DNA from: a virus
Lineage: Duplodnaviria; Caudoviricetes
Direction: 5' to 3' (one strand)
IMG/VR virus record: IMGVR_UViG_3300046791_000121
Coordinates: 1-57,952 of that record
Length of the DNA stretch: 57,952 nucleotides
Part shown: piece after piece, positions 4,384 through 49,866 of the stretch
How the letters are laid out: each line of letters opens with the position of its first letter
How positions within the stretch are numbered: position 1 is the stretch's first letter
Translations under genes and position numbers: made by a program
The notes under the pieces: model-generated
Told to the model about the DNA's origin: nothing
The model's database searches: none
The model's input: only the letters and a program-made list of their open reading frames with translations

Positions 4384-4419
4384 CGGCCTGTCCTCCTTCT
4401 TGGTTGGGGTGGATGTCGG

Positions 4420-17401: not shown

Positions 17402-17512
17402 TTGCTCGACTTCTACTGCCTGATCGTGAGTCTGATCGGCATGTGGTACTGCGGCTTCCAGGCCGGGATCGCGATCGAGAAGAGGCGTGCGAAGAAGAAG
17501 GCGCGGGCGTGA
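17402..17512 (+). CDS. 36-aa single-pass membrane peptide coupled to TerL
   Basis: TTG start after GAGGAG; hydrophobic core then RRAKKKARA; TGA overlaps TerL GTG. Confidence 0.45.
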   Translation: MLDFYCLIVSLIGMWYCGFQAGIAIEKRRAKKKARA

Positions 17513-18957
17513 CGGTCGAGGTACTCGATCCCCAACTCGCGCCGCCCGGCGCCTACTTCAAGGGCGGCAGTTGGGCGCAGTGCCAGGCGATCCTGAGCCG
17601 CGCACCCGAGGTGCTGTACTCGGGGCGCTACGGTAGCTCCAAGAGCCGGACGCTTACCGAGTCCGGGGACATCTACTGCCGCCTCTTCGACGACGCCCGC
17701 GTAATCATGGCGCGCAAGCGCCGCGTGGACCTAGGGCTGACGACGCTTCGGATTCTCCTGGAGCAAACGATCAGCCCCTCGCATGCAGCCGTCGGATGGC
17801 AGAAGTCTGCCGAAGGTGGCAGCACGCTGCACTATCCGAACGGCTCCCAGATCATCTGCGTAGGATTGGACGAGCCGTTCAAGCTCAAGTCCGGTGAGTT
17901 CGACCTGATTCTCGTAGACCAGTGCGAAGAGATCGAGGAGGACGAGTGGCTCGCCGCGGCCGGGCGGTTACGCAACAAGGCGGGCGACTATCAGTCGATC
18001 AAGGGTGCGTGTAACCCCGACTCGCCGTCGCACTGGCTGTTCAGGAAGTTCAATCCAACGTACTCGCACAAGACCTACAGCAACGAGGACCTGAAGCTCC
18101 CCAACGGCGTGGTCGTCCCGAAGGGCACGCTCGTGTCCGAGACTATCCTGGCTGGTCCGCTCGACAACATGGAGAACCTGTCAAACGCCTACCTCGCCAG
18201 GCTGGCCAGGTTCAAGGGCCGCTATCACGCGCGCTACGTTCTGGGCCAGTGGACGAGCTACGAAGGCATCGTCTTCGGAGATGTGTGGAATCCGAACGTG
18301 CATTGTCCGCCACGTCCGCCAGAGTGGGAGCGATGGGGAGGCTATCCGCCACACAACTGGCCGCGCTTCCGGAGCTTCGACTTCGGATTCAATAATCCTT
18401 TCGTCTGCCAGTGGTGGGCGCGCGATCACGACAATGTGTTCTGGCGCTACCGGGAGATGTACATGAGCCACCGGACGGTGCCGGATCACAAAGCCAAGAT
18501 CAGGGCCGAGGAAGAAAAAGAACTGGCCGTCCTGGTTGCCGCCTGCGAGCGCGAGGCGATCGCTCCGCCGCTACGACTCCCATTCTCGTACTCGGTCGCC
18601 GACCATGACCTGGGCGAGCGCGAGATACTCGCTCAGTCGCCGCACCGGATCATCACCTATCCCGCGCGGAAAGAGATCGAGAGCGCGGTTCAGACGGTGT
18701 ACGATCTGCTCTCGGAGGGACGCATTCGGCTGGTCCAAGGCGCGCTCGTAGAGCAGGACCAATCGCTGCTGCATGACGACAAGCCGACCTGCACGGAGGA
18801 GGAGATGCCGCAACTCCACTACCCGACCACGCAGCACACGTCACTCGTCACGCGCCAGCGCGAAGGACCCGTGAAAGAGAACGATCACGGCTTCGATGCG
18901 CTCGCGTACCTGTTCGACACCTTGAAGAACAAGAACCGACCGTCGGTGGCGCGATGA
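17509..18957 (+). CDS. terL: Terminase large subunit (PBSX/Terminase_3-like)
   Basis: Walker A YSGRYGSSKS, Walker B LILVDQCEE, GACNPD, RNase H-fold SFDFGFNNPF and DHGFDALAY. Confidence 0.93.
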   Translation: MTVEVLDPQLAPPGAYFKGGSWAQCQAILSRAPEVLYSGRYGSSKSRTLTESGDIYCRLFDDARVIMARKRRVDLGLTTLRILLEQTISPSHAAVGWQKSAEGGSTLHYPNGSQIICVGLDEPFKLKSGEFDLILVDQCEEIEEDEWLAAAGRLRNKAGDYQSIKGACNPDSPSHWLFRKFNPTYSHKTYSNEDLKLPNGVVVPKGTLVSETILAGPLDNMENLSNAYLARLARFKGRYHARYVLGQWTSYEGIVFGDVWNPNVHCPPRPPEWERWGGYPPHNWPRFRSFDFGFNNPFVCQWWARDHDNVFWRYREMYMSHRTVPDHKAKIRAEEEKELAVLVAACEREAIAPPLRLPFSYSVADHDLGEREILAQSPHRIITYPARKEIESAVQTVYDLLSEGRIRLVQGALVEQDQSLLHDDKPTCTEEEMPQLHYPTTQHTSLVTRQREGPVKENDHGFDALAYLFDTLKNKNRPSVAR

Positions 18958-21435
18958 AGGTCAACGGGGTCGAGGTCACGCGAGAGACCGTGCAGGAGCA
19001 GGAGGGCCGCATGTTCTCACGTGTCGCGCTCCTGCGCGATGGCGTCTACCTGGAGGACGCGATGAACGACCAGGACAAGCAACAGACCGCATCGTCGATC
19101 TTCGGCAACGCCCTCCCGCCGGTGCAACGCCCAGGGGAGCTAGGCTCCTCATACGCCATGCGTCTCAAACGCGAGAAGGTCGAGGACGACATCTTCCATG
19201 GGTGCGCGGCCGGTCCATCCAGCGAGCAGGGGCCGTGGATTCAGATCAAAACGCCGCCCGAGAACTTCGTCGCCTTCTTCCAGGCAGCCCTCGGGTTGCC
19301 TGCACAGTTTGAGCGCGACGGGGACTTCCGGGTAGCCTACGCGCATTGGGCGACGGACGTCGCCGACCCATCCATCAAGGCCATCACGTTTCGCGCAGCC
19401 GAGGACGGCCGGTACTTGGTGATTGAGGTCGAGCGCCGATGAAGATTGCCGTCAAGTCTGATCACGGGACGGTCTTGTACGGGCCGGAGAGCGTCATTGC
19501 CGTCGTGCTGACCCGGAAGGACCGCGAGAACATCGCGAACATGCTGCCCGAGGCGACCGTCTATTGCACCTTCCCCGATGACCCAGCGCCAGACCGGGAA
19601 GCAATCAGCGACTGGCTGCAGACGCTCAAGGACACCCAGTGACCCCGGCCGACTCCATCGCCGCCGCCGTCTACCAGTACAAGGTCCGCATGGACCTCGT
19701 CGGCACGCTGATCGGTCTCGGCCTCGTCGGCCTGTGCGCCCTCACGGCGTGGCTCGCCTCCCGCGTCTCGTTCAGGCGGCCGACATGAGCATGCTGTCCG
19801 ATTCAACGTATGAGGTCGAGATTCGGAAGTGGATGAGGAAGCATCGCCCGCGCGCCTGCCCTGGGTGCGGTGATGACGACGAGTTGCTGTCCACGCTCAG
19901 CCGCGACGGAGTATGGAAGACCTGGAGATGTCTGTCCTGCAACACATGGTGGAGGGTCAAGGCCGATGCCAAGCCGCCGATGGTGGAATAGGTTGCTCGA
20001 CTGGCTCGTGGGGCGCGAGGACGAGGTCGCGTATAAGCCGAGGGTCATCCGCAAGGCCCTGTTTCGCGACGGGCCGATCGGAGGCCAGTGGCTCGAAGTC
20101 AATCCCGCTGCTCGCCGCTACAACATCCCGGTCGATGCGGACTGCATGATGATCGCCGAGTACGAGCGCAGCACCGATGGGTCGTTCTTCTTCGTCAGGA
20201 CCAGGAAGGCGTGGCTTGAGGCGCGGGACGAGGCGATCCGATGACGGCCGTCCCCAACCGTATGCGTCTCGTCCGCATCAAGATCGCCTTCCAACTACTG
20301 GAGCAGATTCTCAAGGGCGGCATGATGCGTGCCGGAGAGCGCGTCGAGACCGACCTGCCAGCCGACGCCGAGATCATCCGCATCAATCCGGAGACATGGA
20401 GCTATCCGGACGTCCTGGAGGTCGTCGTCCGCAGCGCCGAGTTCGACGAGGTCGAGTCGGGGAACATCATCCCGCTACGCGACGTGCAGATGAGGCGGAT
20501 CACCCTATGACCAGAACTACCTGCCTCAAGAAGATGCGGCGCCTGCTGCCATCGATCGCTAGGCGCGAGGCCTATGCCGAGAGGGTCTCGGGACGGTGCG
20601 AGGTTGGCTGGGACCTGAAGACCGAACGAGGCGACGTCGGCCGTCGCGAACGCCATGCACTGGCAAGAACCGATAGCTGGGAAGAGTCGTATCGCAGGGC
20701 GCAGCGAGCAGTCGGAAAGTAGGCAATCGGCACACAGGTGGGGGGCCGCAGGAGGCGCTGGTTGTCATGGAACGGATGGTGTCCGAAGTGCAGGCGGTGG
20801 GGCCACAACTCGGCGGATTGCAAACGCAAGCCGGCGACTCCGGGTGCGACGATCGAGACTCCGTCACACAACGGCGTCTACCAGGGCCAGCGGCGTCCGA
20901 TCGCGATCCCGGCGCGAGGATTGTTCATACGTAGGAAGAAGAGCATTCGCTGACGCAGACATTCCAAACGGGGGCCGAAGATGAAGAAGAGCGCCAAGAA
21001 GAAGGCTGACAAGCAGGTCAAAGGCTACTGGGTGCCGCCTCAGGCGAAGCCGCCGAAGGTCCTCCATGTGATCCTCAGCCTTGAAGGCCAGATCATGGGC
21101 TCGTTCAAGTCCAGCCCCGCAGCGCAAGCATTTGCCTTCGCTCACGAACTGGTGGCGATTTACGTGCTCGACAAGTCCGAGCGTGTGCTCCGAGGCCTTC
21201 GCAAGCCATGAGGCTCCATCTGTGGGAAGAGGTCTGTCGGCTGTACCACTCCGACTTGGCCAAGCGCGTCTTTCCATATCCCGGCAGGAGATCGCGGCGG
21301 GGCCTAATGATCAGGAACAAGGACGTGCCTCTCTGCTCGTGTGGGGCGCTCAACCTCGTTGAAGTATTCGGTCACCTGTGGTGTCCGCGATGGCGTCCAT
21401 GGAGTTTCTGGCGCCACCGAGCCAGGGCAGAATAA
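18954..21435 (+). other. Cluster of about 10 small hypothetical ORFs between TerL and portal
   Basis: ORFs ending 19442, 19642, 19787, 19991, 20244, 20510, 20722, 20953, 21211 and 21435, many coupled; some Zn-ribbons. Confidence 0.7.
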
Positions 21436-21477
21436 GTCCTTGGAAGTGCGGCCCGGTTTCTGATATGCACTGGCCGC

Positions 21478-23733
21478 GTGGCGAAACGGACGTCGTCTTC
21501 ACCCGCGCGGATGTCTTACGAGGACTGCCTCAAGTCCTGCCGCTCCGCTGATCGGCGCGTAAAGAAGTCGATCGAATCGACTGCGCTCGCACCCGCGGGC
21601 CGCAAGCGCGCGTTCACCATGGTCCCGTCCTGGGTCATGGGCCACCCCTCGCAGTTGCCTGCGCAAAGCCTCGACTATCCCTTCGCGTACATGATGGTCC
21701 CGGATGTCTACGCCTGCGTCACGATCATCCGCGAGGAGATCGGCAAGCTGCCGCTCAAGTTCTACATCGAGAACTCGGACCGATCGCGGCGCGACGAGAT
21801 CGAGCGCCTTCCGGGGACCATCACCGATCTTTGGTCTAAGGCCAACGGCCACCAGACCGACTTCGAGATCAAGGAAGAAATTTCCGCTGGCATGGAGATT
21901 TGGGGCAACTCATACCTCTTCACCGACAAGATGGGCACGGGCAAGCCGGTCGAGCTATACGTGCTCCCCGGCAATCAGGTGCGTCCGGTGCTGGGCCCCA
22001 CCGGAGCGGCACGCGCATTCGAGTACTGGATCGGCACCGCGCAGCGCGTGCTCATCCCGGCGGACCAGGTCATCTGGTTCAAGAACTACACGCCGAACAT
22101 GGACAACACCGGTCTCGGCATCTCGACTGTCGGTGTCGGCCGCATCGCCTGGGAGACGCAGTACAACGCATCGCGCTGGCAGAACGAGTTCTTCAAGAAG
22201 GGCGCGGTTGCGGCCGGGTACTACTCGACCAAGGACGCGCTCTCAGATGAGGACCGCGAGGCCCTGATCAACGATCTGAAGAAGCAGGCGCAAGGCGTCG
22301 AGCGGTCATGGGATCCCGTCCTCCTTATGAGCGGGCTCGAGTTCCAGCGAGCGGGCCTGACTCAGCAGGAGATGGACTACGGCGGCGCGGCCGAGCGGAC
22401 GACCGAGCAAATCCTCCGCATCTTCCGCATCCCGCCGACGGTCTTCGGAATCAAGCGCGGCGGCGCCCTAGGCTCAGACGGTGCCGACGTTGACTGGCTG
22501 ATGTACTACGAACAGTGCATCAAGCCGCGCACCGAGCGCATCGAGCGGATGCTCAACGAGTTCCTGTGTCCGCAGTTCGGGCCGCGCGTGGTCGCCGAGT
22601 TCGACTTCACCGGAATCCTTCCCTACCAGGAAGTCTTTCTGACGCAGGTGAAGGCCTACTCAGAGGCGACAGGCGCACCGATCCTCACGGTCGAAGAGGC
22701 GCGCATGCGCATGGGCCTGCCCGCCGAGCCCCAAGATGGCGAGTTGCTGGTGCCGTACACACTGTCCCCGGCGAGCGAGGTGCCGCAGCAGTTGCCTGCG
22801 GCGGACGCGGCGCCAGGGGGACCCGACAAGGCAGACGGCACCAGCGACCCGGCTCAGCAGGAGAGTCGCAATCGCATGCGAAAACTGGCGAACCGCGATC
22901 TGCAACGCCATGAGCGCATGTTCCGCAGGGGCCTCGCTCCCTATTTCCAGCGGCAGGAGCAGCGCGTGGTCGAGCGGCTGCGCGAGCAAGGCGTCCGAGA
23001 TTTCCAGCGCGTCATCGATCTGGACCAACTCCTTGAAGATGCCGAGGGCGACCGCGAGCTAATCCGCAACCTGATCCGTGCCATCGTCGACGAGCGTGGC
23101 GCTGAGGTCGTTGAGGAGCTAGCACCCGAGGTCGCCTTCAGCGTTTTCAACGAGCGCGCCGACCAGTTCATCCGGAACAAGGCCGCGCGCATGGTGACGA
23201 TGGTCAACAACACCACCAGGGCGAAGTTGCGCGACGCGCTCGGTGATGGGCTCGCGAACGATGAAGGCCTCAACGAACTCGTCGCGCGCGTGCGAGAGGT
23301 TTACGGAGACCGCAGGATTGGGGGCGCGGCGGTGATTGCGCGCACAGAGACCGCTGCCGCATACAACTTCGCGACGAACGAGGGCTACGAAGTCAGCGGC
23401 ATCGACGGCAAGGAATGGCTCTCGGCTCACGATGACGCGGTGCGGGATGCGCATGCGGAGGCCGATGGTCAGGTGGTCACCGTGGACGACACGTTCACCC
23501 TCACGGACGACAACGGGCAGGTGTGGGAGGCAGAGTACCCTGGGGCGCCATCGCTGCCTCCGGACCTCGCCGCCAACTGTCGCTGCACCATGCTGCCGGT
23601 GATCAACGCGAGGAGTCGCAAGCGGAAGCGTAGGCAGTCAGTCGAAGAACTCTTGAACGGCAGGCCGCACGTTAATGGTAACGGCAAGGTCCGCGTGAAG
23701 AACGGCGTCACTCTGGAGGAGCTACTGAAATGA
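21478..23733 (+). CDS. HK97-type portal fused to a MuF (SPP1 gp7-like) minor head domain
   Basis: Portal motifs VYACV...GKLPL, WGNSY, FRIPP; MuF motifs IARTETAAAYN, KEWLSAHD..VRDAH...DGQ, NCRCT. Confidence 0.92.
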   Translation: MAKRTSSSPARMSYEDCLKSCRSADRRVKKSIESTALAPAGRKRAFTMVPSWVMGHPSQLPAQSLDYPFAYMMVPDVYACVTIIREEIGKLPLKFYIENSDRSRRDEIERLPGTITDLWSKANGHQTDFEIKEEISAGMEIWGNSYLFTDKMGTGKPVELYVLPGNQVRPVLGPTGAARAFEYWIGTAQRVLIPADQVIWFKNYTPNMDNTGLGISTVGVGRIAWETQYNASRWQNEFFKKGAVAAGYYSTKDALSDEDREALINDLKKQAQGVERSWDPVLLMSGLEFQRAGLTQQEMDYGGAAERTTEQILRIFRIPPTVFGIKRGGALGSDGADVDWLMYYEQCIKPRTERIERMLNEFLCPQFGPRVVAEFDFTGILPYQEVFLTQVKAYSEATGAPILTVEEARMRMGLPAEPQDGELLVPYTLSPASEVPQQLPAADAAPGGPDKADGTSDPAQQESRNRMRKLANRDLQRHERMFRRGLAPYFQRQEQRVVERLREQGVRDFQRVIDLDQLLEDAEGDRELIRNLIRAIVDERGAEVVEELAPEVAFSVFNERADQFIRNKAARMVTMVNNTTRAKLRDALGDGLANDEGLNELVARVREVYGDRRIGGAAVIARTETAAAYNFATNEGYEVSGIDGKEWLSAHDDAVRDAHAEADGQVVTVDDTFTLTDDNGQVWEAEYPGAPSLPPDLAANCRCTMLPVINARSRKRKRRQSVEELLNGRPHVNGNGKVRVKNGVTLEELLK

Positions 23734-24038
23734 CCCCGCTGACCAGCATTCAGAGCCCTGGGACCGGTGGATACCTGGAAGTCCTGAGCCAACTCAGCCG
23801 CATGAAGTTCAACGTACTGGCCGGGACGACGGCGAACACGAACATCGCGGTGTCGGGCATTGCGACGGACGACGTCCTCATGTTCTGCCTGCGGCTCGAC
23901 CGCGATGCGACGGCGGCCAACATCACCATGGCGGATGTCACGGCGGAAGTCGCGATCACGTCGGCTGGCAACGTCCAGCTATCGACGACCAACACCACGG
24001 GCGATTCGCTGCTGCTCATCTGGTGCGACAAGCAGTAA
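23730..24038 (+). CDS. Small beta-rich virion/decoration-like protein
   Basis: Thr/Ala-rich beta pattern; located in head module. Confidence 0.55.
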   Translation: MTPLTSIQSPGTGGYLEVLSQLSRMKFNVLAGTTANTNIAVSGIATDDVLMFCLRLDRDATAANITMADVTAEVAITSAGNVQLSTTNTTGDSLLLIWCDKQ

Positions 24039-24221
24039 ATGCACAACGACCTGGGTCACCGCATTCCGGGCTCGCCGGTGCCGACCGGTCGCATGAGGTC
24101 CAATCTGTTGACCTGCCCGGAGTGCAAGCACCAGTTCGTCGCCGTCGCGAATGTTCTCAAGCAGGCCTGTCCCAACTGTAGGACGGAGATGCGAGTCAGG
24201 CCGATGGAGGTGCAGCGATGA
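24039..24221 (+). CDS. Zn-ribbon protein
   Basis: CPECK...CPNC. Confidence 0.65.
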   Translation: MHNDLGHRIPGSPVPTGRMRSNLLTCPECKHQFVAVANVLKQACPNCRTEMRVRPMEVQR

Positions 24222-25309
24222 AGTCGTTCATTGCGAGGCGCGCTGCCGATACGGTCAACGGCCTCGATCTTGATCCGGCTCGCGGCGTGGACGGTTCACG
24301 CGGAGCGCGGGTGCTGGCGGAGCGGTACATCGGAAAGATTCGCGCGATCGCTCGCAACAACGAACTCCAGTCGGACGAGGTCCATGTTCGCGGGATGTGG
24401 CTCTGCAACAGCGAGCGCGACTACTACATGAGTCGCTTCACGCTGTCGGCGTTGGACGAGATCGCCGAGATGTTGCCGGGACGCCCGGTGATGGTCGGCC
24501 ACGACTACAGCCAGGCCCCGGTGGGCCGCTTCTTCGCGGCCGAGCGCGTGTTCCGCGACGACCTGCAACGGCCCAAGCGCGACAACTACTGGGTCAAGGG
24601 GCTGTTCTACACGCTCGCACGAGACGAAGAGGGCGATGCGATCGCCCGAAGGATCGATGGCGGCATCTACCAGGAGGTGTCAGTCGGTTGGCGCTGCCTG
24701 AACGCCACCTGCGCTCTGTGCATGAACCCGATCAACGACCACAACCGCTGCCCGCACGTCCCTGGCGAGCTTTACGAGGAAGGACTCTGCGACTACGAGT
24801 TCTCGGATGTGACCACGGTGCTCGAAGGCTCGCTGGTGTTCGCTGGTGGACAGAAGGACACCAGCATGTTCACGCCTGATCCGGGCTCACGCATGCTAGG
24901 CGGCATCAAGAAGTCGCTGTCGCTCGACGAGTTCCTGGCGGCCGACGACCTCGAGGAGCCTGTGATCAAGGACCTCAAGCGCGGGTTCGTCGCAGGAGTG
25001 CCGGACTTCCAGTCGATCGTCAGCCTGCGACAGCTTCGCAACGAGGTGCAGACGGTGCTGTGTGCGCGCAGCCGATTCCAGGACGCCGACGCAGCCAAGC
25101 GTTGGGTCCGCGCCCACGAGTTCCGCGCGTCGATGATGGACGACAACGGCAATGACTACATCCGCTTCAAGCAATGGCCCGACACTGAAGTATCCGACGG
25201 GTCGGAGCGCTTCAAGGACATCGATGCAGGCGTGAAGGTGCGTCTGTGCAAGCGCCAGGACCCGAAGCGGGCGACCTCGCTGGAGGAGGTGTTCGCGACC
25301 GCCGAGTAA
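24218..25309 (+). CDS. Prohead maturation protease with extra C-terminal domain
   Basis: PVMVGHD (His), EVSVGW (Ser), EGSLVFAG; Cys cluster CALC...CPH; lies before the MCP genes. Confidence 0.85.
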   Translation: MKSFIARRAADTVNGLDLDPARGVDGSRGARVLAERYIGKIRAIARNNELQSDEVHVRGMWLCNSERDYYMSRFTLSALDEIAEMLPGRPVMVGHDYSQAPVGRFFAAERVFRDDLQRPKRDNYWVKGLFYTLARDEEGDAIARRIDGGIYQEVSVGWRCLNATCALCMNPINDHNRCPHVPGELYEEGLCDYEFSDVTTVLEGSLVFAGGQKDTSMFTPDPGSRMLGGIKKSLSLDEFLAADDLEEPVIKDLKRGFVAGVPDFQSIVSLRQLRNEVQTVLCARSRFQDADAAKRWVRAHEFRASMMDDNGNDYIRFKQWPDTEVSDGSERFKDIDAGVKVRLCKRQDPKRATSLEEVFATAE

Positions 25310-25376
25310 GACGCTGTCCCCGTCCACCGAAGGGCCGTACGCGACAAGCTAGCCCCAGCGAGAGGCGAACCGAGCT

Positions 25377-27026
25377 ATGGAGACGAAGGTCGAGAAGAGG
25401 ACGTTCGCGGAGGTCGGCGGCCTGCCGACCGACCGAAAGATCACGGCCGACGAGTTGGTGGCCAAGGTCAACGAGATTCACGAGCGCATCGCGTATTTGT
25501 GCAAGCGCGACGGCACGGTCGATCCGGACATCCAGCGGCAGATGGCCGACGACATCAAGACGATGCAGGCGCAACTCGTCGAGACCGACAAGATCGCCAA
25601 GGCGGCTGGTCGCAGTGGTGGTGCGACGGACTTCGACGCGATGGAGCCGCTGCTGCTTGCAGAGCACATCGTGCCGGACGAGAAACGTACCTCGCCAGCC
25701 TACTATGTGTTGGCGAGCCTGTCTCCGGACGAGCTTCGCTATGGAGCGGCCTATCGGTCGCTCGACAACTCTCCGGTGCAGCGAATCGCGCGGGCGGTCG
25801 AAAGCGTCAGCGAGCGAGCGATTCGCGACTTCCATCGCGCCAACGACCAACTCTACATCGCCGACCTGGTGATGACCGGAAACGGGCGCACGGCCTACGC
25901 ACGCTCATCGACCGACCCGGTCGAGCGCATGAAGCGTGGCTGCCCGAAGGCCTGGAAGGAGTGGGAACGAACGGTCGGCCAGTTCGAGCGACTCGGAATG
26001 ACGACCTCGACGGCGGCGGCGGGTGGCGCCTGGATTCCGACTCAGCTTTCACAGCGACTCGCGGAACTGATCCAGCCGGAGCTTCAGGTCGCAGGCCTGT
26101 TCGAGGTCGTGGACATGCCGAACAAAATCTTCGACTACCCGCTGTTCGGTGCCGACCCGGTGGCCTTCAAGGTGCCGGAAACGGGGTCGATTGGTCAGCA
26201 GGACATCGCAACCGCCAAGGTCACGTTCACCGCGACCAAGCTCGGCCTTCGCGTGGTCGCTAGCACCGAAGTCATCGAAGACGCGGCGATCGCACTGGAG
26301 CCGCGCATCATGCAGAAGATCGCAGCAGGAACTGGGCGCGGCATCGAGGACTCGATCATCAACGGTGACTCGCTGATCACGGCTGGCGGTACCGGAGCGC
26401 AGGACTTCGACCTCCAGCAGGCCCAGAACTCAGGCTACGCGACCGACCGTCGTGGCTCGTGGGACGGCCTGCGGAAGTTCTCGTTGGTGTCCGGAATGCC
26501 GAACAAGGACATCTCGACCTTCAACATCGAGAACCTTCTCGGAATCCGCGCGGCGATGAAGGGCGGCTCCGGCGGCAACATGTTCGGCCTGTTCGCGCGC
26601 GATCTGGTGTGGCTGGTCAACCTCGTCGGCTACATCAAGATTCTCACGCTCTCCCAGGCGTCACAGGCGTCGGCGGTGCTGACGATCGAGAAGTATGGCC
26701 CCGGCGCCACGATCATGACGGGCGAAGTCGCCCAGATCGCAGGCTCTCCGGTCATCCTGTCGGAGTTCGTCCGCGACGACGTCGCATCGACCGGCGTCAA
26801 TACCACGGGCGGTCCGAACACCCTCTCGACACTTCAACTCTTCAACAGGACCGCCTTCGCTCTTGGGCGTCGGCGCGACATCACGGTCCAGCGTTCGAGC
26901 GAACATCGCTTCGACACGGACGAGATCGAGTACACGGGAACGTGGCGTGGCCACTGGCGCGACCTGTACCCCGTCGGTGCGGGCTCAGCCAATCGGTCGG
27001 TTGGCGTCGGCCGCAACTTCTCGTAA
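25377..27026 (+). CDS. Major capsid protein 1 (HK97 fold, long N-terminal delta/scaffold region)
   Basis: GGAWIPTQLS, VTFTATKL, EDSIINGD, IAGSPVILSEFV; ends GVGRNFS. Confidence 0.92.
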   Translation: METKVEKRTFAEVGGLPTDRKITADELVAKVNEIHERIAYLCKRDGTVDPDIQRQMADDIKTMQAQLVETDKIAKAAGRSGGATDFDAMEPLLLAEHIVPDEKRTSPAYYVLASLSPDELRYGAAYRSLDNSPVQRIARAVESVSERAIRDFHRANDQLYIADLVMTGNGRTAYARSSTDPVERMKRGCPKAWKEWERTVGQFERLGMTTSTAAAGGAWIPTQLSQRLAELIQPELQVAGLFEVVDMPNKIFDYPLFGADPVAFKVPETGSIGQQDIATAKVTFTATKLGLRVVASTEVIEDAAIALEPRIMQKIAAGTGRGIEDSIINGDSLITAGGTGAQDFDLQQAQNSGYATDRRGSWDGLRKFSLVSGMPNKDISTFNIENLLGIRAAMKGGSGGNMFGLFARDLVWLVNLVGYIKILTLSQASQASAVLTIEKYGPGATIMTGEVAQIAGSPVILSEFVRDDVASTGVNTTGGPNTLSTLQLFNRTAFALGRRRDITVQRSSEHRFDTDEIEYTGTWRGHWRDLYPVGAGSANRSVGVGRNFS

Positions 27027-27040
27027 GTCATCACGGCAAC

Positions 27041-27064
27041 GGCGGGGGGCTTCGGCCCTCCGCC
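27041..27064 (+). terminator. GC-rich cUUCGg hairpin between the two capsid genes (attenuator/stability element; no U-tract)
   Basis: GGCGGGGGGC-TTCG-GCCCTCCGCC, 10-bp stem with one G-U pair. Confidence 0.7.
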
Positions 27065-27097
27065 ATACGCCTTCACCTCTCGGCCTTGGAGGGCCAG

Positions 27098-28780
27098 ATG
27101 ATCGAGCTTCTGGAGGAGCGCAACGCCTTGGAGAGCGTGTCCAAGCGCCTCCACGACCTGCGCGAGTTCTCCGACAAGGTCGCGGCTCGGGACGGCGGCA
27201 GCACTCCCGAAGAGCAACTCCAGATTCAAACGCGAGTAGCAGAGATTGCCGCCTTCTCGAAGCTCGCAATCGTCGAGCGACAACCCATCCAGGTGCGGAT
27301 GCCGCTGGTTTCGGACGATCCGCGCGATCGACTGATGCACAACCTGCTCCAGCTATCCGTCGAAGAGATGGAGGGCATGGACCGTGAGCCGATCGCGCGT
27401 GCACGTCGCAGTAGCTACGTCGCCGACCTACAGCGCGACTTGCAACAGACCAACGACGAACTCCTGGTGGCGAGCCTGCTCCTCGGGCGCGGCAGCAAGA
27501 TGGCCGAAATGCGCAGCCTCAAGCTGTGGCGTCATTGGGAGCGCCTTGTCGAGATGGTCAAGCGCGACATGGACACCGGGACTGCTGCCGAGGGCGGCAA
27601 CTGGGTGCCTTCGACCATGAGCAGCCGTCTCATGCAGTACGTTACGCCCGAGCTTGTCGTGGCGCGCCTCTTCGAGGTGTTCGACATGCCGTCGAAGACC
27701 TGGGAGCCACCGATCATCGACTTCGATCCGATCGCCAAGTTCACTCCGGAGAACGGCGCGATCCCCGCGACGGATGCCGGAGCCAACAAGGCAACGCTGA
27801 CCGCCGTGAAGCTCGCGGTGTTCATGCAGGGAGTTAGCTCAGAACTCGACGAGGACACGGCGATCGCTTTCGCCGAGACCTTCATTCGCGTTCTCGGGCG
27901 CTCCCTCGGGCGCGGTGAAGAGGATGCGATCATCAACGGCGACACGACTGTCGGAACTGGATCGGCCCAAGACACCGACATGCAGGCCAACGCTCCGACC
28001 ATCTCGACCACCGCGAACGGGACGACGACGCTGACGACCGGGGCCAACTTCTTCACCTCGGGGGTCAAGCAGGGAGACGTCGTCAGCGGTGGTACACCCG
28101 CTCCTCCGGCTGGCTGCACCGTGGTCAGCGTCGAGTCCGCGACCTCGCTGACCATGAGCGCGGCCATCACGGCGGGGGCCGAGGCCCAGAACCGCGTCTT
28201 CACCCGGACGTCGGCGGCGCTGCTGCTCCATGCCCGCAAGGCGTGGAATGGGCTGCGCAAAACGGCGCTCATCTCAGGCATGTCGAACGAAGACCTCGCG
28301 ACCTTCACTGACGCGACCTTGCCCAAGATTCCGAAGGCGATGGGGCGGTACGGGTCGAGCATGGGAGCGTGGATAGTCGGCCACAAGGGCTTCGGAAACT
28401 TCTTCATCAACAGAGCCTTGATGCCGAGCTTCCTGACACTCGATCAAATGGGTGGCAATCTCGGGGTGTTCATCCCCGGACAGATCGCCTCGTACTGCGG
28501 ACGCCCGGTCATCCTCTCGGACTTCGTACGCGAGGATGTCGCATCGACTGGCCTGGTGACCAACGCCGCCTCGAACACCTTCTCGTTCCTGCTCTTCGTC
28601 TGCCGCTCAGCGTTCCTGCGTGGTCGGCGTCGCGGAGTCGAGGTTCAGCGGACCATCCATCACCGCTTCGACACCGACGAGGTGAGCTATCGCGGCACCT
28701 GGCGCGGCATGTTCAAGGAACTGTTCTCCTCGACAGCGGCGGCCAATAAAATCGTCGGCATCGGAAGGAACTTCTCGTAG
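27098..28780 (+). CDS. Second HK97-fold capsid protein (paralogue of MCP1) with an inserted beta domain of about 70 aa
   Basis: ATG 27098 after GGAGGG; GGNWVPSTMS, LTAVKL, EDAIINGD, GRPVILSDFVREDVASTG, HRFDTDE, GTWRG; ends GIGRNFS. Confidence 0.9.
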   Translation: MIELLEERNALESVSKRLHDLREFSDKVAARDGGSTPEEQLQIQTRVAEIAAFSKLAIVERQPIQVRMPLVSDDPRDRLMHNLLQLSVEEMEGMDREPIARARRSSYVADLQRDLQQTNDELLVASLLLGRGSKMAEMRSLKLWRHWERLVEMVKRDMDTGTAAEGGNWVPSTMSSRLMQYVTPELVVARLFEVFDMPSKTWEPPIIDFDPIAKFTPENGAIPATDAGANKATLTAVKLAVFMQGVSSELDEDTAIAFAETFIRVLGRSLGRGEEDAIINGDTTVGTGSAQDTDMQANAPTISTTANGTTTLTTGANFFTSGVKQGDVVSGGTPAPPAGCTVVSVESATSLTMSAAITAGAEAQNRVFTRTSAALLLHARKAWNGLRKTALISGMSNEDLATFTDATLPKIPKAMGRYGSSMGAWIVGHKGFGNFFINRALMPSFLTLDQMGGNLGVFIPGQIASYCGRPVILSDFVREDVASTGLVTNAASNTFSFLLFVCRSAFLRGRRRGVEVQRTIHHRFDTDEVSYRGTWRGMFKELFSSTAAANKIVGIGRNFS

Positions 28781-28796
28781 CACCACAGGAGGCTGC

Positions 28797-29075
28797 ATGG
28801 CAAAGGTGAGATGGGCTGGGCCGACGAGGCTGATCGATGGCGACGAGGCCAGGAGCGCCTCGATCAACATGATGCCCGGCGACGTAGCGGATGTCTCAGA
28901 AGAGGCAGCCAGGCGGCTCGCTGGAATCGATGGCATCACGTGGCTGGATGCGCCTGCTCCAGCGAATACGGCACCTGTGCCGGCGGCGGACAAGGCTGCG
29001 ACCGATGCCGAGAAGGTGGCTAAGCCTGCGACAGTCAAGTCGGCCGTCAAGGACGCGACGGAGAAGGACGGGTAG
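28797..29075 (+). CDS. Small head-associated protein A
   Basis: AGGAGG RBS; MAKVRWAGP...PGDVADVSEEAARRL; position after the MCPs. Confidence 0.7.
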   Translation: MAKVRWAGPTRLIDGDEARSASINMMPGDVADVSEEAARRLAGIDGITWLDAPAPANTAPVPAADKAATDAEKVAKPATVKSAVKDATEKDG

Positions 29076-29078
29076 TCC

Positions 29079-29291
29079 ATGGGGATGATGAAGGTAAAGT
29101 ACGTGGGTCCAGGCGCGGCGGTGGTCTGCGACGGTGACAACGTGGGTACGATCGCGCTCGCTAGCGGAGAGGAGTGCGAGGTCCACGAGGATTGCGCAAA
29201 GCGACTCCGCACCGTCGATGGGTTCGTGATTGTCGAGGACGCCCCCGTAGCAGAGGCGGCCGTAGCGCCTGCAGCAGAAGAGACGACGTAG
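29079..29291 (+). CDS. Small head-associated protein B (paralogue of A)
   Basis: MKVKYVGP...SGEECEVHEDCAKRL..VDGF. Confidence 0.7.
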   Translation: MGMMKVKYVGPGAAVVCDGDNVGTIALASGEECEVHEDCAKRLRTVDGFVIVEDAPVAEAAVAPAAEETT

Positions 29292-29299
29292 CCGGGATT

Positions 29300-29365
29300 C
29301 GGCGGGCGGAAACCTGGAGGGATGGGTGCGGCCCCCACCAGTCAGGCGGAAGCCCGCCGTTCTTC
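29300..29365 (+). terminator. Long nested stem-loop after the head genes
   Basis: CGGCGGGC...GCCCGCCG outer stem with inner CCTG/CAGG and TGG/CCA pairs, followed by TTCTT. Confidence 0.5.
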
Positions 29366-29378
29366 GTGGAGGTAGTCT

Positions 29379-30194
29379 GTGTCGGATGTCATGCTCAAGC
29401 CGTGGGCGCTCTCGACCCTAGAGGCGGCGCGTGAGTACATCCGTCCAGGGAAGGTCGAGCAACTCGACGCGGAATCGGTAGACGCGGCCCTGATCCAGTT
29501 CGTGAATGAGGCGTCGGGAGTGCTTCAAGGCGCTACTGGCAGGAAGCTCGCCGCGCGTCCCTACGTGGACCAGTTCGGGCTCGCCAACTGCGACACCACG
29601 TTGGAGCAGAAGGTCCTGACCACCGCCGACTACGCCAACGTCCGCAACGGCATGGTGGTGACTGGCGCTGGGGTTGTCGACGGCGCGTTCATCACCGCCG
29701 AATCAGCATCGGCGCCAGAGATGAACCTTGCAGCCGAGCAGACCCTGGTCGGCGTTACGCTGACCTTCATCGGCGCAGGCCACATGGTGCTCGACGGATC
29801 AGGCGAGTCCGAGCTTCGCGTCCCCGAATGGCCGGTGACAGAAGTCATCGCTGCCACATCCATTGGCACAGACGGCAGCGCGACAGCGCTCAACGTATCG
29901 GGTGCGCGCTCGCGCGCGAACCGCATCCTGCTGACGAACGACGTTTTCCCGGAAGGCCGGATGAACATCCACCTGTCCTGCGTCGCCGGATTCAAGACGG
30001 GCTACTGGGACGAGCAGCGCCAGGAACTCGAGAACGCCTGCCTGCGGCTGGTGAGCGTCATGTTCAACGACTGGAAGGACAAGGTCGGGCGCGGGACCAA
30101 CGTCTCGATCCAGGGCTTCTCCATGACGTTCATGGACAAAGGCCTTCCAGCCGACGTGCAGAAGATCGTCGACAGATATGCGAGGAAGTCGTGA
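29379..30194 (+). CDS. Head-tail adaptor (gp6/gp15-like) with inserted beta domain
   Basis: ALSTLEAAREYI...TGRKL, LRVPEWPV, GRMNI..SCVAGF, LENACLRLV, LPADVQKIVDRY. Confidence 0.8.
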   Translation: MSDVMLKPWALSTLEAAREYIRPGKVEQLDAESVDAALIQFVNEASGVLQGATGRKLAARPYVDQFGLANCDTTLEQKVLTTADYANVRNGMVVTGAGVVDGAFITAESASAPEMNLAAEQTLVGVTLTFIGAGHMVLDGSGESELRVPEWPVTEVIAATSIGTDGSATALNVSGARSRANRILLTNDVFPEGRMNIHLSCVAGFKTGYWDEQRQELENACLRLVSVMFNDWKDKVGRGTNVSIQGFSMTFMDKGLPADVQKIVDRYARKS

Positions 30195-30835
30195 TCTCCG
30201 TCACGGTGACACAGAAAGGCGTCAAGCAGGCGGAACTCAGGCTAAAGAACTTCTCGCATGACGCGAGTGCGCCGGGCCAGGTGCGAGTGATGCAGCGCGC
30301 CACGGCCATCATGGAGACCGACCTCAAGACGGTCGCGCTCGACGGCGTGAAGGGACGGCACCCGTTCTTCGGAGTAACGTCTGGGCCGACCCTCGGCGCG
30401 CTCGGAGTCCGAAGCGGACACCTGCGCCGCAGCGTCGTGTCCGACGTCATTCACAAAGCGTCCTACCCGCCGGTGCTCATCGGCGTTACCGGAACGCCAT
30501 CCAAGATCGCCGCCATCCACGAAGAGGGCGCGCACATCCAGGGCAGACCGTTGCTGGCGATACCGCTTGCGGCAGCACAGACCATGGCGGGAGTGATGCG
30601 GCAGAGCCCGCGATCCTACGCGAACGCCTTCGTGTTCAAGAGCAAGAAGGGCAACCTGTTCCTGGCCATCAACAGGGGCGGACAGTTGGTTCCGCTGTTC
30701 ATCCTCAAGCAGACGGTGCATCTGCGAGCGCGGCATGTCTTCAAGCGGAGCCTGAAGCGCTGCAAGCGCGCCATTGAGGCCCTGTTCGATGTTGACGTGG
30801 CACTCAAGGCGCGGAAGGCGAACGGCGGCGTATGA
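30191..30835 (+). CDS. Neck/tail-completion protein (HK97 gp10-like)
   Basis: VRSGHLRRSV...AAIHEEGAHI...LAIPL; basic; position. Confidence 0.75.
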   Translation: MISVTVTQKGVKQAELRLKNFSHDASAPGQVRVMQRATAIMETDLKTVALDGVKGRHPFFGVTSGPTLGALGVRSGHLRRSVVSDVIHKASYPPVLIGVTGTPSKIAAIHEEGAHIQGRPLLAIPLAAAQTMAGVMRQSPRSYANAFVFKSKKGNLFLAINRGGQLVPLFILKQTVHLRARHVFKRSLKRCKRAIEALFDVDVALKARKANGGV

Positions 30836-31272
30836 GCCACACATCGAAGGTCAACCGCATCGTCGAGCAGGCCGTTCTGGTTCTGTCGTCCATCGATTCA
30901 GATTTGGACCCAGGTACGTGGAAGACCAAGCCGAACCTCGTCGAGCACGGATTGGTGTTGTCTAGCATGATCAGCAGTCCGGCCATCCTGCTCCAAATGG
31001 TCCACCAGGACGACACGCCGCTAGGGGGACCTGGGAAACACCGGACGACCGGACGCCTCGGGATTCGTTGTGTATCTGACGGAGTGAAGGAGATGAACGA
31101 CCTCATCGACGATGTCCAGAAGGCGCTGTCGCGGGATGACGACGACGCCAAGCTGGGCGGAGAGGTCATGCGCTCCTACACAGGGGCGACTATCGACGCC
31201 GAGAATCCGAAGGACGGGATGTCGATCGCGTATATCGAAGTCGGGATGATTTGGGACTGGAGTCACGACTAA
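30832..31272 (+). CDS. Probable tail terminator
   Basis: Size, acidity, LGG motif and position directly before the tail tube. Confidence 0.6.
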   Translation: MSHTSKVNRIVEQAVLVLSSIDSDLDPGTWKTKPNLVEHGLVLSSMISSPAILLQMVHQDDTPLGGPGKHRTTGRLGIRCVSDGVKEMNDLIDDVQKALSRDDDDAKLGGEVMRSYTGATIDAENPKDGMSIAYIEVGMIWDWSHD

Positions 31273-31302
31273 GAACCAATAGGGGCCGCAGGGGAGCGCC
31301 AA

Positions 31303-32301
31303 GTGGCAGTCGGACAGGGCAACAAGTCGTTCATCACGATTGGAATCGAGACTGCCTTTGCGGATGGGACCTCTCGTCCGCCGACCGGTGCAGGCTCGTA
31401 CAAGCTGGAAATCATCTCCGGCAACTTGGACCCGAACATCGGAACCATCCCTAGCCGTAGTCTCTATTCGGGAGTCGCGCGGCGCGGCTTCTACCAGGGG
31501 GGCCTAGGCTATGCGGGTCGGTTCCTGATAGAGGGCCGCTACCAGGGCATCGGGCGCTTGTTGTACTCCGCCTATGGATCGGTCGCGACGACGGGTCCGG
31601 TCAGCAGCGTCTACACCCACACGTACAAAGAGGCGCCGAATCCGCCGAGCCTCGTGATCGAGTTGTCCGAAGGCGACATGCCCGCCGGGAGGGTCAAGCG
31701 AATCATCGGCGCCTACGTGACGGACTTCGTCCTGCGAGGCGTCGCTGGGCAGGGCGACGACGCGCTTCTGACCTGCGAGTTCGGCATCCTCGCCAAAGAC
31801 GTGCAACTCGACCAGACGCCGACGTCGGTCAGCGCCTTCGCGCCGCTGGTCCCGTGGCTGTTCCACGAATCGACTTCGGCGACGCTCGATGGCTCGACCG
31901 AGACCCAGGCCAATCAGGTCATGCACGAACTCACGATGACGCTGGCCAACAAGTACGAGGAGCGCTACAAGTTCGGTTCGCTCTCTCCCGCGCAGCCGAT
32001 CCGCAACGATTACATCGACGCCAACTGGCAGATCACGTCAGACTTCATCGGCATCCTGGCGGCGCAGAACGCTCGTAGCTTCGCGACCGTCGCGCCGAAG
32101 CTGGTGCTGGCGCACGTCAACGACTCGGTCGAGTTCAGGTCGCAGGGATGCAAGCCGCGCGAATACGGAAACCCGGTCGAGGGCTATGGGCCGCTACTGA
32201 TGAACATGACATTCGATGCGTTCAACGACACGACCGGGGACAACTCATCCATGGTCTGTGTCCTCAAGAACCTGGACACCGCCGCGATCAATCACCTGTA
32301 G
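31303..32301 (+). CDS. Major tail tube protein
   Basis: IGIETAF, YTHTY...PSLVIE, MTLAN; position before chaperone and tape measure. Confidence 0.8.
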   Translation: MAVGQGNKSFITIGIETAFADGTSRPPTGAGSYKLEIISGNLDPNIGTIPSRSLYSGVARRGFYQGGLGYAGRFLIEGRYQGIGRLLYSAYGSVATTGPVSSVYTHTYKEAPNPPSLVIELSEGDMPAGRVKRIIGAYVTDFVLRGVAGQGDDALLTCEFGILAKDVQLDQTPTSVSAFAPLVPWLFHESTSATLDGSTETQANQVMHELTMTLANKYEERYKFGSLSPAQPIRNDYIDANWQITSDFIGILAAQNARSFATVAPKLVLAHVNDSVEFRSQGCKPREYGNPVEGYGPLLMNMTFDAFNDTTGDNSSMVCVLKNLDTAAINHL

Positions 32302-32326
32302 AACGGATGCGAGAAAAGGGGGCCGA

Positions 32327-32920
32327 ATGAACAGGCTGTTGAAGACGCTGACGCGGGAGATCGTGATTCCCGGAACAGACTCGGGCGGCGAGGAGCCGCT
32401 CGTCATCCGTGTACGCCGCCTGCCGCCCGACGTGGCGATGTCGGTGGCGCAGGACCTCGATCGGCTACAGAAGGCCCAGGCCGATCCGACGAATCCGGAT
32501 CGAATCCGAGAGGACTCGGAAGAACTGCGCCGAGTGTATGCGCGCGTCGCCAAGCTCGGCGTCGTCTCGGTAGGCAACTCGAGCGAGTCCTACACCTTCG
32601 TGTACGACGGGGACGAGGGCGGCGATCTTGGGGCAGTTCGGTTCCACGACCTGATGATTGGAACTCAGATCGAGGTCTACAGAACGGTTCTCAACATGAG
32701 CATGGAGGGCGTGCCAGCCGCTGTCGAGGCGGCCGCAGCCTTTCGACCCCAAGGGGAAGCTGGCGAGCGTGGGGTTCAGGATGGGAGCGCTGGCGTCGGA
32801 CCTGGTGGAGATGGCGACGTGGGCGAATCCGCCGCACCTCCAGATGGGCTACCAGGAGTGGCCACCACTGGCGGCGCTGACGTTCAACAGGCGGGTGTTG
32901 CAGTCGGCGAGGCTGTTTGA
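32327..32920 (+). CDS. Tail assembly chaperone (gpG-like)
   Basis: ATG 32327; between tail tube and tape measure; low-complexity tail after AAAFR. Confidence 0.75.
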   Translation: MNRLLKTLTREIVIPGTDSGGEEPLVIRVRRLPPDVAMSVAQDLDRLQKAQADPTNPDRIREDSEELRRVYARVAKLGVVSVGNSSESYTFVYDGDEGGDLGAVRFHDLMIGTQIEVYRTVLNMSMEGVPAAVEAAAAFRPQGEAGERGVQDGSAGVGPGGDGDVGESAAPPDGLPGVATTGGADVQQAGVAVGEAV

Positions 32921-32984
32921 GAAGCGCGTCAACGACGCTCGTGCAGCCGGGATCAAGGACGTTCGAGTTCTAGGGAAGGACTGA
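32738..32984 (+). CDS. Frameshift extension of the chaperone (gpGT-like) via +1 shift at GCC-TTT-CGA
   Basis: +1 frame is open from 32742 to TGA 32984, just before the tape measure start. Confidence 0.65.
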
Positions 32985-32985
32985 A

Positions 32986-34701
32986 GTGGCGAACGTAATC
33001 GAGAACCGAGTCAACACGGTCTACACCGGATCGGCGGCCGTAAACGCGGCGCTGCATGACCTGCACAAGATTCATACAGCCGCCGAGGGAGCCAGCGGCC
33101 TCGGCGGTCTCGGCGGGCTGACCCAGATCGCGGGGCTAGGTCTCGGCGTGGGAGCCATCGCCGCAGTGTCGGGCGCGTTCTTGGGGCTGTCAGAGGCGGC
33201 GAAGGGTGCAGTTGAGAGCCTGCGCGAGGCCGGCAAGGAGGCCGAGCAACTCTCCAATCTCTCGCAAAAGACAGGCATTGCGACCTCGGCCCTGGAGGGA
33301 CTCCAGCTTGCGTTCAAGGAGGCGGGGGTCGCCGAGGCCTCTCTGAACATCGGTCTGCGCTTCCTTAATCGCTCCATCTCGGAAGGCGATCCGGCCCTCA
33401 AGAAACTCGGAATCATCACGCAGGACACCAAAGAGGCGTTGCTGGAACTCGCCGACGCATTCTCGCGATCCGCCGACGGGCCGGACAAGACCGCCGTGGC
33501 AATCAAGGTGCTCGGGCGCGCGGGAAGCGAACTCATCCCGGTGCTGAACAAGGGGCGCGTCGAGCTTGAGACGTTCCTGGAGCAGGCCGAAAAAACTGGT
33601 GCAGTGCTGAGCGAGGACACAATCAAGGCGCTGAAGGACCTGGACAATCAGTTCGACGCACTCGATCGCTCGATGAAGGTGTTCAAGAACACGCTGCTCA
33701 CGCTGGTGGCTCCGGCCGTCGTCGGTTTCGTCAAGGACATCAGCGGGATGGTCCAGAAGATGGCCCTGTTGCCGCAACTGTTCGCGGTATCCGTGGCCGG
33801 AATCGCGGTGTGGAACGACATGCTCGGCAAGGACAAGGACGGCGTGAAGAAGTTGGTGGCCGAGGCGAAGGAGCTAGCCAAGCAGGCCGAGGTTATCGCC
33901 GACCTGAACAAGAAGCCGTTCGAGGTCCTCGATCTTGGTGGCCAGCGTGACGAGCTTGAGGACTTCAACGCGAAGATGCGCGCAGCCGCGACCGCCACCA
34001 AGGAGGCGGCGGACAAGGCAGAGGAGGCCAAGAAGAAGTTCCGAGAGTTGCTGGAGACATTCGTAGCCAACACCAACGCAACCCCGCTGGAGCTTCCCGC
34101 TATCAAGCCGACAGGCGCGCTAGAACCAGAGAAGTTCAAGACCGAGAAGCCAGCCGAGAACATCGAGAAGCAGTTGTCGCCGGGTATCGCGGCCATGGCG
34201 GCGTTCAAGAAGGCGCTGATCGATGCGACGGATGTAACCCTGGAGAAGGTTGGCCTGCTGCAAGGCGCGTTCGATGGCCTGGCGTCCGGGCTCCAGGAGG
34301 CCTTCTTGGGGCTCCTGAACGGAGTCGAATCTCTGGGGACGGCGATCGTAGGAGTCATCAAGTCGATGGTCTCCGCGATCCTGTCGGAGCTAGCGAAACT
34401 GGCGGCGGCGGCGATCTTCAAGCTGTTCCTCAAACTGATCGGCTTCTCACTGGGACCGGCCGGTGCGGTGATCGCGGTTGCTTCAGGGTTCTCTCCGTCC
34501 GGCAGCGGCGGCGGCTTGGATACTACAAAGCGCTCCGGCGACGTCGTCGGCCAGTTCGGTGTCGCCATCCAGGACCTGTCGCGCGAGTTGGCGAGGGCCA
34601 ACCGGAACGCGGTTCTGGTCGATCGCGTATCCTTCTTCGAGACCATCGGCAATGCGCTCGCAGCGCCGCAGCGTAGGCGGGCCTTGGCGCAGGGGTGGTA
34701 A
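32986..34701 (+). CDS. Tape measure protein (571 aa)
   Basis: Ala/Gly/Leu-rich helical; LSQKTGI...LGRAGSELIPVLNKG; follows the chaperone. Confidence 0.88.
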   Translation: MANVIENRVNTVYTGSAAVNAALHDLHKIHTAAEGASGLGGLGGLTQIAGLGLGVGAIAAVSGAFLGLSEAAKGAVESLREAGKEAEQLSNLSQKTGIATSALEGLQLAFKEAGVAEASLNIGLRFLNRSISEGDPALKKLGIITQDTKEALLELADAFSRSADGPDKTAVAIKVLGRAGSELIPVLNKGRVELETFLEQAEKTGAVLSEDTIKALKDLDNQFDALDRSMKVFKNTLLTLVAPAVVGFVKDISGMVQKMALLPQLFAVSVAGIAVWNDMLGKDKDGVKKLVAEAKELAKQAEVIADLNKKPFEVLDLGGQRDELEDFNAKMRAAATATKEAADKAEEAKKKFRELLETFVANTNATPLELPAIKPTGALEPEKFKTEKPAENIEKQLSPGIAAMAAFKKALIDATDVTLEKVGLLQGAFDGLASGLQEAFLGLLNGVESLGTAIVGVIKSMVSAILSELAKLAAAAIFKLFLKLIGFSLGPAGAVIAVASGFSPSGSGGGLDTTKRSGDVVGQFGVAIQDLSRELARANRNAVLVDRVSFFETIGNALAAPQRRRALAQGW

Positions 34702-49668: not shown

Positions 49669-49866
49669 ATGCGGCTCACGGTCCTGCTTGTCCTCGCGCT
49701 CGCGGCCGTGAGCGGCTGCGACACTGACCACCGCCACAATCCGGCGGGCCCTCGGCTCTGTTCATACGTGCGCCAGGGGCCTGCCGGTCCTATCAGAATC
49801 TGGGACGCATGCCCCGATCCATCACCGACGCCGCGCCCCAGTCCGACTCCCCGTCCATGCCACTGA
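49669..49866 (+). CDS. Small lipoprotein (o-spanin-like)
   Basis: MRLTVLLVLALAAVSG/C lipobox; Pro-rich; two further Cys. Confidence 0.65.
   Translation: MRLTVLLVLALAAVSGCDTDHRHNPAGPRLCSYVRQGPAGPIRIWDACPDPSPTPRPSPTPRPCH

Follow-up and report, generated by a model that had tools for sequence, protein, structure and literature searches.

The subject of this report is a pair of adjacent genes for major capsid proteins (MCPs) in a tailed-phage sequence, IMG/VR virus record IMGVR_UViG_3300046791_000121. The record is classed as linear; all 57,952 bases of it are referred to here as the window, and the region analysed lies on its plus strand. In this region, we found two genes whose products, MCP1 and MCP2, are predicted to share the HK97 fold. 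The pair is conserved in the same order in related contigs, and a stable GC-rich hairpin lies between the two frames. We propose, with moderate confidence, that both proteins build one shell in which MCP2 is the minor subunit, probably that of the pentons. The locus comprises the following elements.

25377-27026, plus strand: MCP1, 549 aa, HK97-fold protein; proposed bulk (hexon) subunit
27041-27064, plus strand: intergenic hairpin with a 10-bp GC stem and a TTCG loop, without a T-run; proposed attenuator or 3' stabiliser
27088-27093, plus strand: GGAGGG Shine-Dalgarno sequence of MCP2, 4 nt before its ATG, read directly from the DNA
27098-28780, plus strand: MCP2, 560 aa, HK97-fold paralogue; proposed minor shell subunit, most likely of the pentons
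27986-28231, plus strand: insert of about 80 aa in MCP2 (residues ~297-378), delimited by alignments

A first-pass annotation had described the locus as two full-length tandem MCP genes, and this description holds: the coordinates and lengths are correct, both reading frames are intact, and the genes lie on a common strand with 71 nt between them. The motifs that it had listed as shared (GGAWIP/GGNWVP, IINGD, PVILS.FVR.DVASTG, HRFDTDE, GTWRG and a terminal G(V/I)GRNFS) are all found in both translations. By BLASTP, the two proteins are 33% identical over 319 columns (E 7e-42) and 44% identical over 192 columns (E 9e-43), values far above chance, and these two blocks flank the insert of MCP2. 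Both proteins exceed the cut-offs of PF05065 (56.5 bits for MCP1 and 54.8 bits for MCP2, cut-off 24.2, with matches confined to roughly the first 130 of the 280 profile positions) and of TIGR01554 (60.1 and 73.9 bits, respectively, cut-off 27.5). Further, both match phrog_10, “major head protein”. The ribosome-binding site that had been ascribed to MCP2 is present, with GGAGGG ending four bases before the ATG at 27098; the only candidate for MCP1 is GAGAGG, located 12 nt upstream of its start. A longer open reading frame (ORF) in the MCP2 frame, beginning at a GTG at 26459, was rejected as an artefact of high G+C, since it is at ATG 27098 that the MCP2 orthologues align with their N-termini. 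The junction between MCP1 and MCP2 is spanned by contigs from three public soil or rhizosphere sequencing runs, which may be the window's own source. Contigs from four runs are identical or nearly identical to the window, apart from one G>T difference at 26163 and, in contigs of low depth, a few indels. Taken at the level of sequence, the evidence indicates that the pair are intact tandem paralogues, neither an assembly artefact nor in decay.

The AlphaFold2 models of the two proteins, which were built on 80-row alignments and are predicted rather than solved structures, have mean pLDDT values of 85.4 (MCP1) and 82.2 (MCP2). In Foldseek, T5-like (T5/DT57C) capsid proteins and HK97 hold the top ranks for both, with a probability of 1.00. 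VIA-align superposes MCP1 on DT57C chain 8ho3_M with a Z of 19.7 (rmsd 3.4, 244 residues aligned) and MCP2 with a Z of 19.4 (rmsd 3.3, 243 residues aligned), and a profile made from the MCP2 clade has T5 pb8 among its matches (E 3.1e-13). According to AlphaFold2, Foldseek and VIA, both copies have the HK97 fold; the lack of it in one copy, which the first-pass annotation had named as a way in which its claim might fail, was not found. T5 makes both hexons and pentons from one capsid protein. This protein, pb8 of T5 and DT57C (PDB 8ho3, 8zvi, 5tjt and 6okb), is the closest solved structure for both paralogues, and it places its HK97 fold behind a long N-terminal domain. Its identity to the window's proteins is about 20-23% over the aligned part, and T5 has no insert.

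Judged by the offset to pb8, the mature part would begin at about residue 206 in MCP1 and about residue 156 in MCP2. The regions before these points (about 205 and 155 aa, 26% identical) thus differ in length and sequence, as first described. AlphaFold2 predicts them to be helical in both proteins, with the helices of MCP2 spanning residues 2-158, and they are presumably delta- or scaffold-like domains that are cleaved on maturation. A complex prediction for residues 210-549 of MCP1 with residues 160-560 of MCP2 returned “no answer” (score 0.00), which is evidence neither way.

The insert of MCP2, which is rich in Thr, Ser and Gly, comes immediately behind the spine helix and the INGD motif. 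It has short beta strands and is modelled with low confidence (pLDDT 49-66). In alignments, it is missing from MCP1 and from the single-copy relatives, and each of the four full-length MCP2-type proteins has it in well-conserved form (47-64% identity among orthologues). A protein search gave 1,674 matches among 1.84 billion representative proteins; the best 150 of these were examined for the insert, which was crossed in one stretch by only four (the window's MCP2, P0021, P0022 and P0027). The insert has no Pfam match at E up to 10. Feature scores for it in the ESM Atlas are 0.80 or less. Its structural look-alikes there are small domains in other phage virion proteins (sheath, tube and adaptor; TM 0.69-0.77 by query); these are leads only, and it is as a lead that we suggest the insert may be a surface module. 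A near-identical MCP2 variant, P0020, is encoded on a JGI contig of 9,911 bp and differs from P0002 only by M295I, at the insert edge. That a neighbouring enzyme glycosylates the Thr/Ser-rich insert is no more than a passing idea. In the related contig L005, an ORF (3022-4047, plus strand) that lies between MCP2 and a small ORF has a GT2 domain that is marginal (23.4 bits, cut-off 23.3). The window has no GT2 match, and its only gene of the GT1 family is distant, encoding a 435-aa protein with a glycosyltransferase group 1 domain (54497-55804, minus strand; PF13692 E 1.1e-7, PF00534 E 2.8e-6).

The pair occurs in other phages. An alignment-based scan of IMG/VR viral contigs returned 73 loci; a scan of viral contigs with a single protein found no relatives. 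Two of the 73, L004 and L005, have the ordered pair, the second gene of L004 being cut by the contig end, and the other 71 have one capsid gene, at most 34% identical to MCP1. Scans of metagenomes and species genomes yielded 81 further loci, of which one has the pair, and this is the L005 contig again. A scan of genome contigs gave one remote match, in a Planctomycetota metagenome-assembled genome, and no prophage carrying the pair. Among cultured phages, tblastn found no close relative (best 27-35% over partial lengths). Few members of the lineage occur in the collections searched, and our literature searches found no paper on the MCP1/MCP2 protein family.

In a maximum-likelihood tree, the first genes of the window, L004 and L005 fall in an MCP1 clade (support 99/98) and the second genes in an MCP2 clade (100/100). 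The duplication is therefore older than the split of these phages. The phylogeny proposed in the first-pass annotation as a check on conservation thus favours the pair, with the same order in L004 and L005 and each copy in its own clade. Further, P0004 (MCP1 type) and P0027 (MCP2 type) come from one JGI contig (21,071 bp), so that a fourth pair likely exists. Three proteins without the insert, P0008 to P0010 from ENA and Logan contigs, are sister to the MCP2 clade (96/90) and not to MCP1. A distant relative, P0024 (693 aa, Logan), combines PF05065 with PF04586 (Peptidase_S78), a protease-capsid fusion in the wider family.

Constraint was measured as identity per region, synonymous sites being saturated at 44-61% amino-acid identity and the run contigs nearly invariant. 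In matched genomes, the mature parts of orthologues are 52-61% identical for MCP1 and 49-51% for MCP2, and the N-terminal domains 33-43% and 33-38%, respectively. Paralogues from one genome have 45-49% identity over the mature part and 26-35% over the N-terminal part. The branches of MCP2 in the tree are longer than those of MCP1. By these measures, MCP2 evolves slightly faster and is clearly constrained. The relaxed selection on one copy that the first-pass annotation had considered was not seen, both frames being intact and orthologue identity being similar for the two copies.

Sites that are invariant in both clades amount to 25/91 in the N-arm and E-loop, 14/60 in the second P-domain segment and 12/139 in the first A-domain segment, a pattern that fits, weakly, two proteins that fit one lattice. 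Only three sites are fixed differences between the MCP1 and MCP2 clades. All three are conservative, and no signature of five-fold versus six-fold packing was found among them. So few fixed differences would be expected if one gene were a redundant duplicate with no separate role, heading for loss. That explanation is very improbable in our estimation: the frames are intact in three contigs at only 49-61% orthologue identity (mature part), the insert is conserved at 47-64%, and the gene order is fixed.

The 71-nt spacer between the genes folds at -40.9 kcal/mol (z -3.5), and none of 200 shuffles was as stable. Its hairpin is the third most stable of 28,954 44-nt segments on the window's plus strand; the two most stable (49431-49474 and 49743-49786; -28.2 and -29.9 kcal/mol) lie just before an ORF at 49809-50792. 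Hairpins that differ from it in sequence occupy the equivalent place in L004 (z -3.24) and L005 (z -3.0), and all three pair contigs thus have one. At the loci with a single capsid gene (L006-L074), a hairpin lies within about 110 nt after the stop codon with z <= -3 in 25/65 and z <= -2 in 41/65, figures that serve for comparison only, as the z values are minima over overlapping windows (biased low) and some loci are near-duplicates. Some of these hairpins are perfect stems of 11 to 14 bp. The closest single-gene relatives, L006 to L009, are among the loci with z <= -3, and a GC hairpin right after the gene looks to be widespread in this capsid-gene family. MCP2 is followed by a spacer of 16 nt, and the lowest z downstream of it is only -2.28 in the window and -1.77 in L005. 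Since MCP1 is followed by a hairpin as many single capsid genes are, it keeps the capsid-gene layout, with MCP2 placed beyond the hairpin.

Codon usage points in the same direction. The effective number of codons (ENC) is lower in MCP1 than in MCP2 in all three pairs (36.2 vs 40.0, 29.9 vs 31.4 and 30.3 vs 35.5, the last involving a partial gene). The hairpin, the codon bias and the ancestral, insert-free form of MCP1 are indirect evidence that this protein may be the bulk subunit, and MCP2 would be made in smaller amounts. The roles could also be reversed, with MCP2 and its surface insert forming the bulk of the hexons and MCP1 the pentons. MCP2 does have the better ribosome-binding site, and bulk capsid proteins often carry inserted surface domains, the I-domain of P22 being an example. 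This assignment is nevertheless unlikely, given that it is MCP1 that lacks an insert, like the single-copy relatives, that keeps the hairpin seen after single capsid genes, that has the stronger codon bias in 3/3 pairs and that has the shorter branches in the tree.

The genes around the pair are those of a head-tail module.

17443-18957, plus strand: large terminase of the head-tail module
21478-23733, plus strand: portal fused to a Mu F-like domain, start of the head module (PF04860 E 5.4e-54, PF04233 E 1e-11)
Between the portal and the 363-aa gene, plus strand: 102-aa ORF
24218-25309, plus strand: 363-aa protein, possible prohead protease (weak), directly upstream of MCP1
28797-29075, plus strand: 92-aa ORF, first small paralogue, possible head or connector accessory (weak DUF7302 match, E 0.0071, below the cut-off; phrog_748 E 0.0046)
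29079-29291, plus strand: 70-aa ORF, second small paralogue (weak DUF7302 match, E 0.032)
29379-30194, plus strand: head-tail adaptor (phrog_442)
31303-32301, plus strand: tail protein
32986-34701, plus strand: tape measure protein

The MCP pair sits within the head module, with the portal upstream and the head-tail adaptor and tape measure genes downstream; tail-tip and spike-like genes follow the tape measure gene. The 363-aa protein has no family match in Pfam or NCBIfam, and it matches phrog_16951 (function unknown) at E 3e-25. Its ESM Atlas scores, all below 0.9, are leads only: a DUF2213 cluster (0.88) and a cluster in which 31% of members have Peptidase_S78 (0.87). L004 has a 370-aa ORF at the equivalent position, and the fusion of the portal to a Mu F-like head-morphogenesis domain is also found there (2598-4760). 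The 92-aa and 70-aa ORFs right behind MCP2 form a tandem paralogue pair of their own (29% identity, E 2e-8), and L005 has one 65-aa ORF in their place, a similarity judged by eye. The pair may encode an accessory protein of the head or connector whose gene was duplicated as well.

No sheath gene was found among the genes tested in the window, and so the tail is likely of the siphovirus type. Of the “roughly 57-kb siphovirus” in the first-pass annotation, the tail type is thus probably right; the size is only a lower bound on that of the genome, because the record is a fragment, with a CheckV completeness of 65% and open frames running off both ends. The G+C content is about 63% throughout, and no tRNA genes were found in the window. 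At its left end, a putative metallopeptidase-domain protein with DUF2201_N (E 8.5e-32) adjoins an AAA_5/AAA ATPase (2-1327 and 2746-4113, both minus strand). The six sequencing runs listed as containing the window's sequence are of soil or rhizosphere DNA, with no RNA run among them, and soil and rhizosphere are the habitat of the lineage.

The composition of the module bears on the suggestion, made in the first-pass annotation, that the phage builds two head types. Two different heads could mean dimorphic capsids, or one of the genes could serve a satellite or alternative particle, and each protein does have a separate scaffold-like N-terminal domain, of a length that differs from the other. 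However, the module has one portal, one candidate protease and one terminase gene. Only 71 nt separate the two capsid genes, which share a strand; a search of 21000-33000 gave no promoter-like site; and the lattice-contact regions of the two proteins have invariant residues in common. We therefore set this suggestion aside as highly unlikely.

A division of labour between capsid paralogues has precedents. In T4, gene 23 precedes gene 24, the identity between their products is low, and gp24-bypass mutants exist. In that phage, gp23 forms the hexons and gp24 the vertex pentons, a split of roles between paralogues that a 2026 review calls rare (PMC13185644). The likeness to the window is that of HK97-fold paralogues dividing the hexon and penton roles, which for MCP1 and MCP2 is a proposal. 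T4 is, however, a large prolate myovirus, whereas in the window a tape measure gene is present and the genes tested include no sheath. To treat dual capsid proteins as a T4-like speciality, as the first-pass annotation did, is out of date, as a 2026 preprint provides an example from a siphophage. There, the T=9 capsid of Jabs, which infects Mycobacterium abscessus, was resolved by cryo-EM with MCPh (ORF72) in the hexons and MCPp (ORF73) in the pentons, and its authors regard it as the first icosahedral example of such split roles (bioRxiv 10.64898/2026.07.24.740622).

Jabs, as there described, resembles the window in its siphophage-type genome, in its two adjacent HK97-fold capsid genes, the first with a long N-terminal domain, and in having T5 among its structural matches. 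The differences lie mainly in the second protein. MCPp is reported as 257 aa long, without an N-terminal domain and with a smaller axial domain, and shares 18% identity with MCPh; MCP2 is larger (560 aa), has an N-terminal domain of about 155 aa, has gained an insert and is 45% identical to MCP1 in the mature part. MCP2 is thus not a reduced penton protein of the Jabs type. This feature belongs to Jabs and not to T4, and it bears on the subtype only. Further, the roles were shown by cryo-EM in Jabs and are inferred here. Another siphophage with a second, diverged copy of the capsid gene is Caulobacter phage Colossus, whose gene 36 is a diverged duplicate of the major capsid gene 81 (PMC3556154). 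Unlike the pair in the window, its copies are about 21 kb apart and not in tandem, and the passage that describes them assigns no role to the second. The dual-capsid arrangement is therefore already known from T4 and Jabs, and MCP1 and MCP2 are members of an ordinary HK97/T5-like family. What is particular to the window's pair is that the paralogues are close, that both keep their N-terminal domains, that the second copy has a conserved added domain, and that the hairpin between the cistrons is conserved.

In the arrangement that we favour, one head would be assembled from the two related HK97-fold shell proteins, each with its own N-terminal scaffold-like domain, presumably removed on maturation. 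MCP1 would be the bulk subunit, having the ancestral form without the insert and the ancestral layout, in which the hairpin may limit or stabilise its message. MCP2, encoded beyond the hairpin, would be produced in lower amounts and would co-assemble as the minority subunit, for which the pentons are the obvious minority position. Its insert would stand on the outer surface of the shell. The vertex or minor-subunit role put forward in the first-pass annotation is, then, consistent with the hairpin and the codon bias in so far as a lower amount of MCP2 is concerned; the vertex itself is a further step.

Several considerations weigh against this arrangement. None of our results assigns MCP2 a position in the shell. 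The protein has undergone no reduction, as it keeps its N-terminal domain and is larger than MCP1, unlike MCPp of Jabs; and the paralogues are far closer to each other (45-49% in the mature part) than are those of Jabs (18%), such that specialisation may be slight. The Shine-Dalgarno sequence of MCP2 (GGAGGG) is stronger than that of MCP1 (GAGAGG). The hairpin has no T-run and its regulatory effect is putative, and the differences in ENC are small and length-dependent. The A-domains are generally the least conserved part of HK97 proteins, which weakens the argument from lattice sites. Finally, the insert-free sister clade (P0008-P0010) may come from phages with one capsid gene or with two.

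Some of the same facts would suit a shell in which both proteins occupy hexons, whether as mixed capsomers, in variable composition, or with MCP2 in one class of hexon (on a symmetry axis or beside the pentons), while MCP1 or both form the pentons. The mature parts are 45-49% identical with only three conservative fixed differences, and both proteins keep a scaffold-like N-terminal domain. Co-assembly of HK97-fold paralogues in variable composition is known from the Family 2B encapsulin of Streptomyces lydicus, described in its source as a two-component shell (PMC12407261). Chains of this encapsulin (9bje and 9bix) are structural matches of MCP1 and MCP2 with Z 16.9-17.7, a likeness seen only in the fold; by the same source, its variably composed and irregularly tiled shell is that of a cellular nanocompartment, and not of a DNA-filled phage head. 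Unequal amounts are instead suggested by the intergenic hairpin and by the codon bias, which is weaker in MCP2, and a literature search aimed at such cases found no precedent in a tailed phage (our other searches had other targets); neither point is strong. We consider the shared-hexon shell somewhat improbable.

Returning to the penton assignment, we offer a fuller version of it tentatively, as a possibility that falls short of an even chance. The pair may represent an early stage of a hexon/penton division of labour, in which a vertex or minority capsomer retains its own internal scaffold, the conserved insert faces outward and serves, at about eleven positions on the head, as a turret or an adhesin, and an intercistronic hairpin inherited from a single-gene ancestor sets the ratio of the two proteins.

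An old question in the biology of these capsids is what decides whether a single HK97-fold protein goes into a five-fold or a six-fold capsomer. MCP1 and MCP2 would offer a gentle contrast, the sequence differences being few, with a single domain added and a single scaffold domain shortened, and swaps between the copies could therefore map the determinants of capsomer type. The system is also small, and a laboratory strain could be made to co-express the 363-aa protein, MCP1 and MCP2 for imaging. If MCP2 does mix into hexons, it would be the first such case in a tailed phage that is known to us. The conserved hairpin, for its part, suggests a simple route by which gene order and RNA structure may together set the stoichiometry of a shell.

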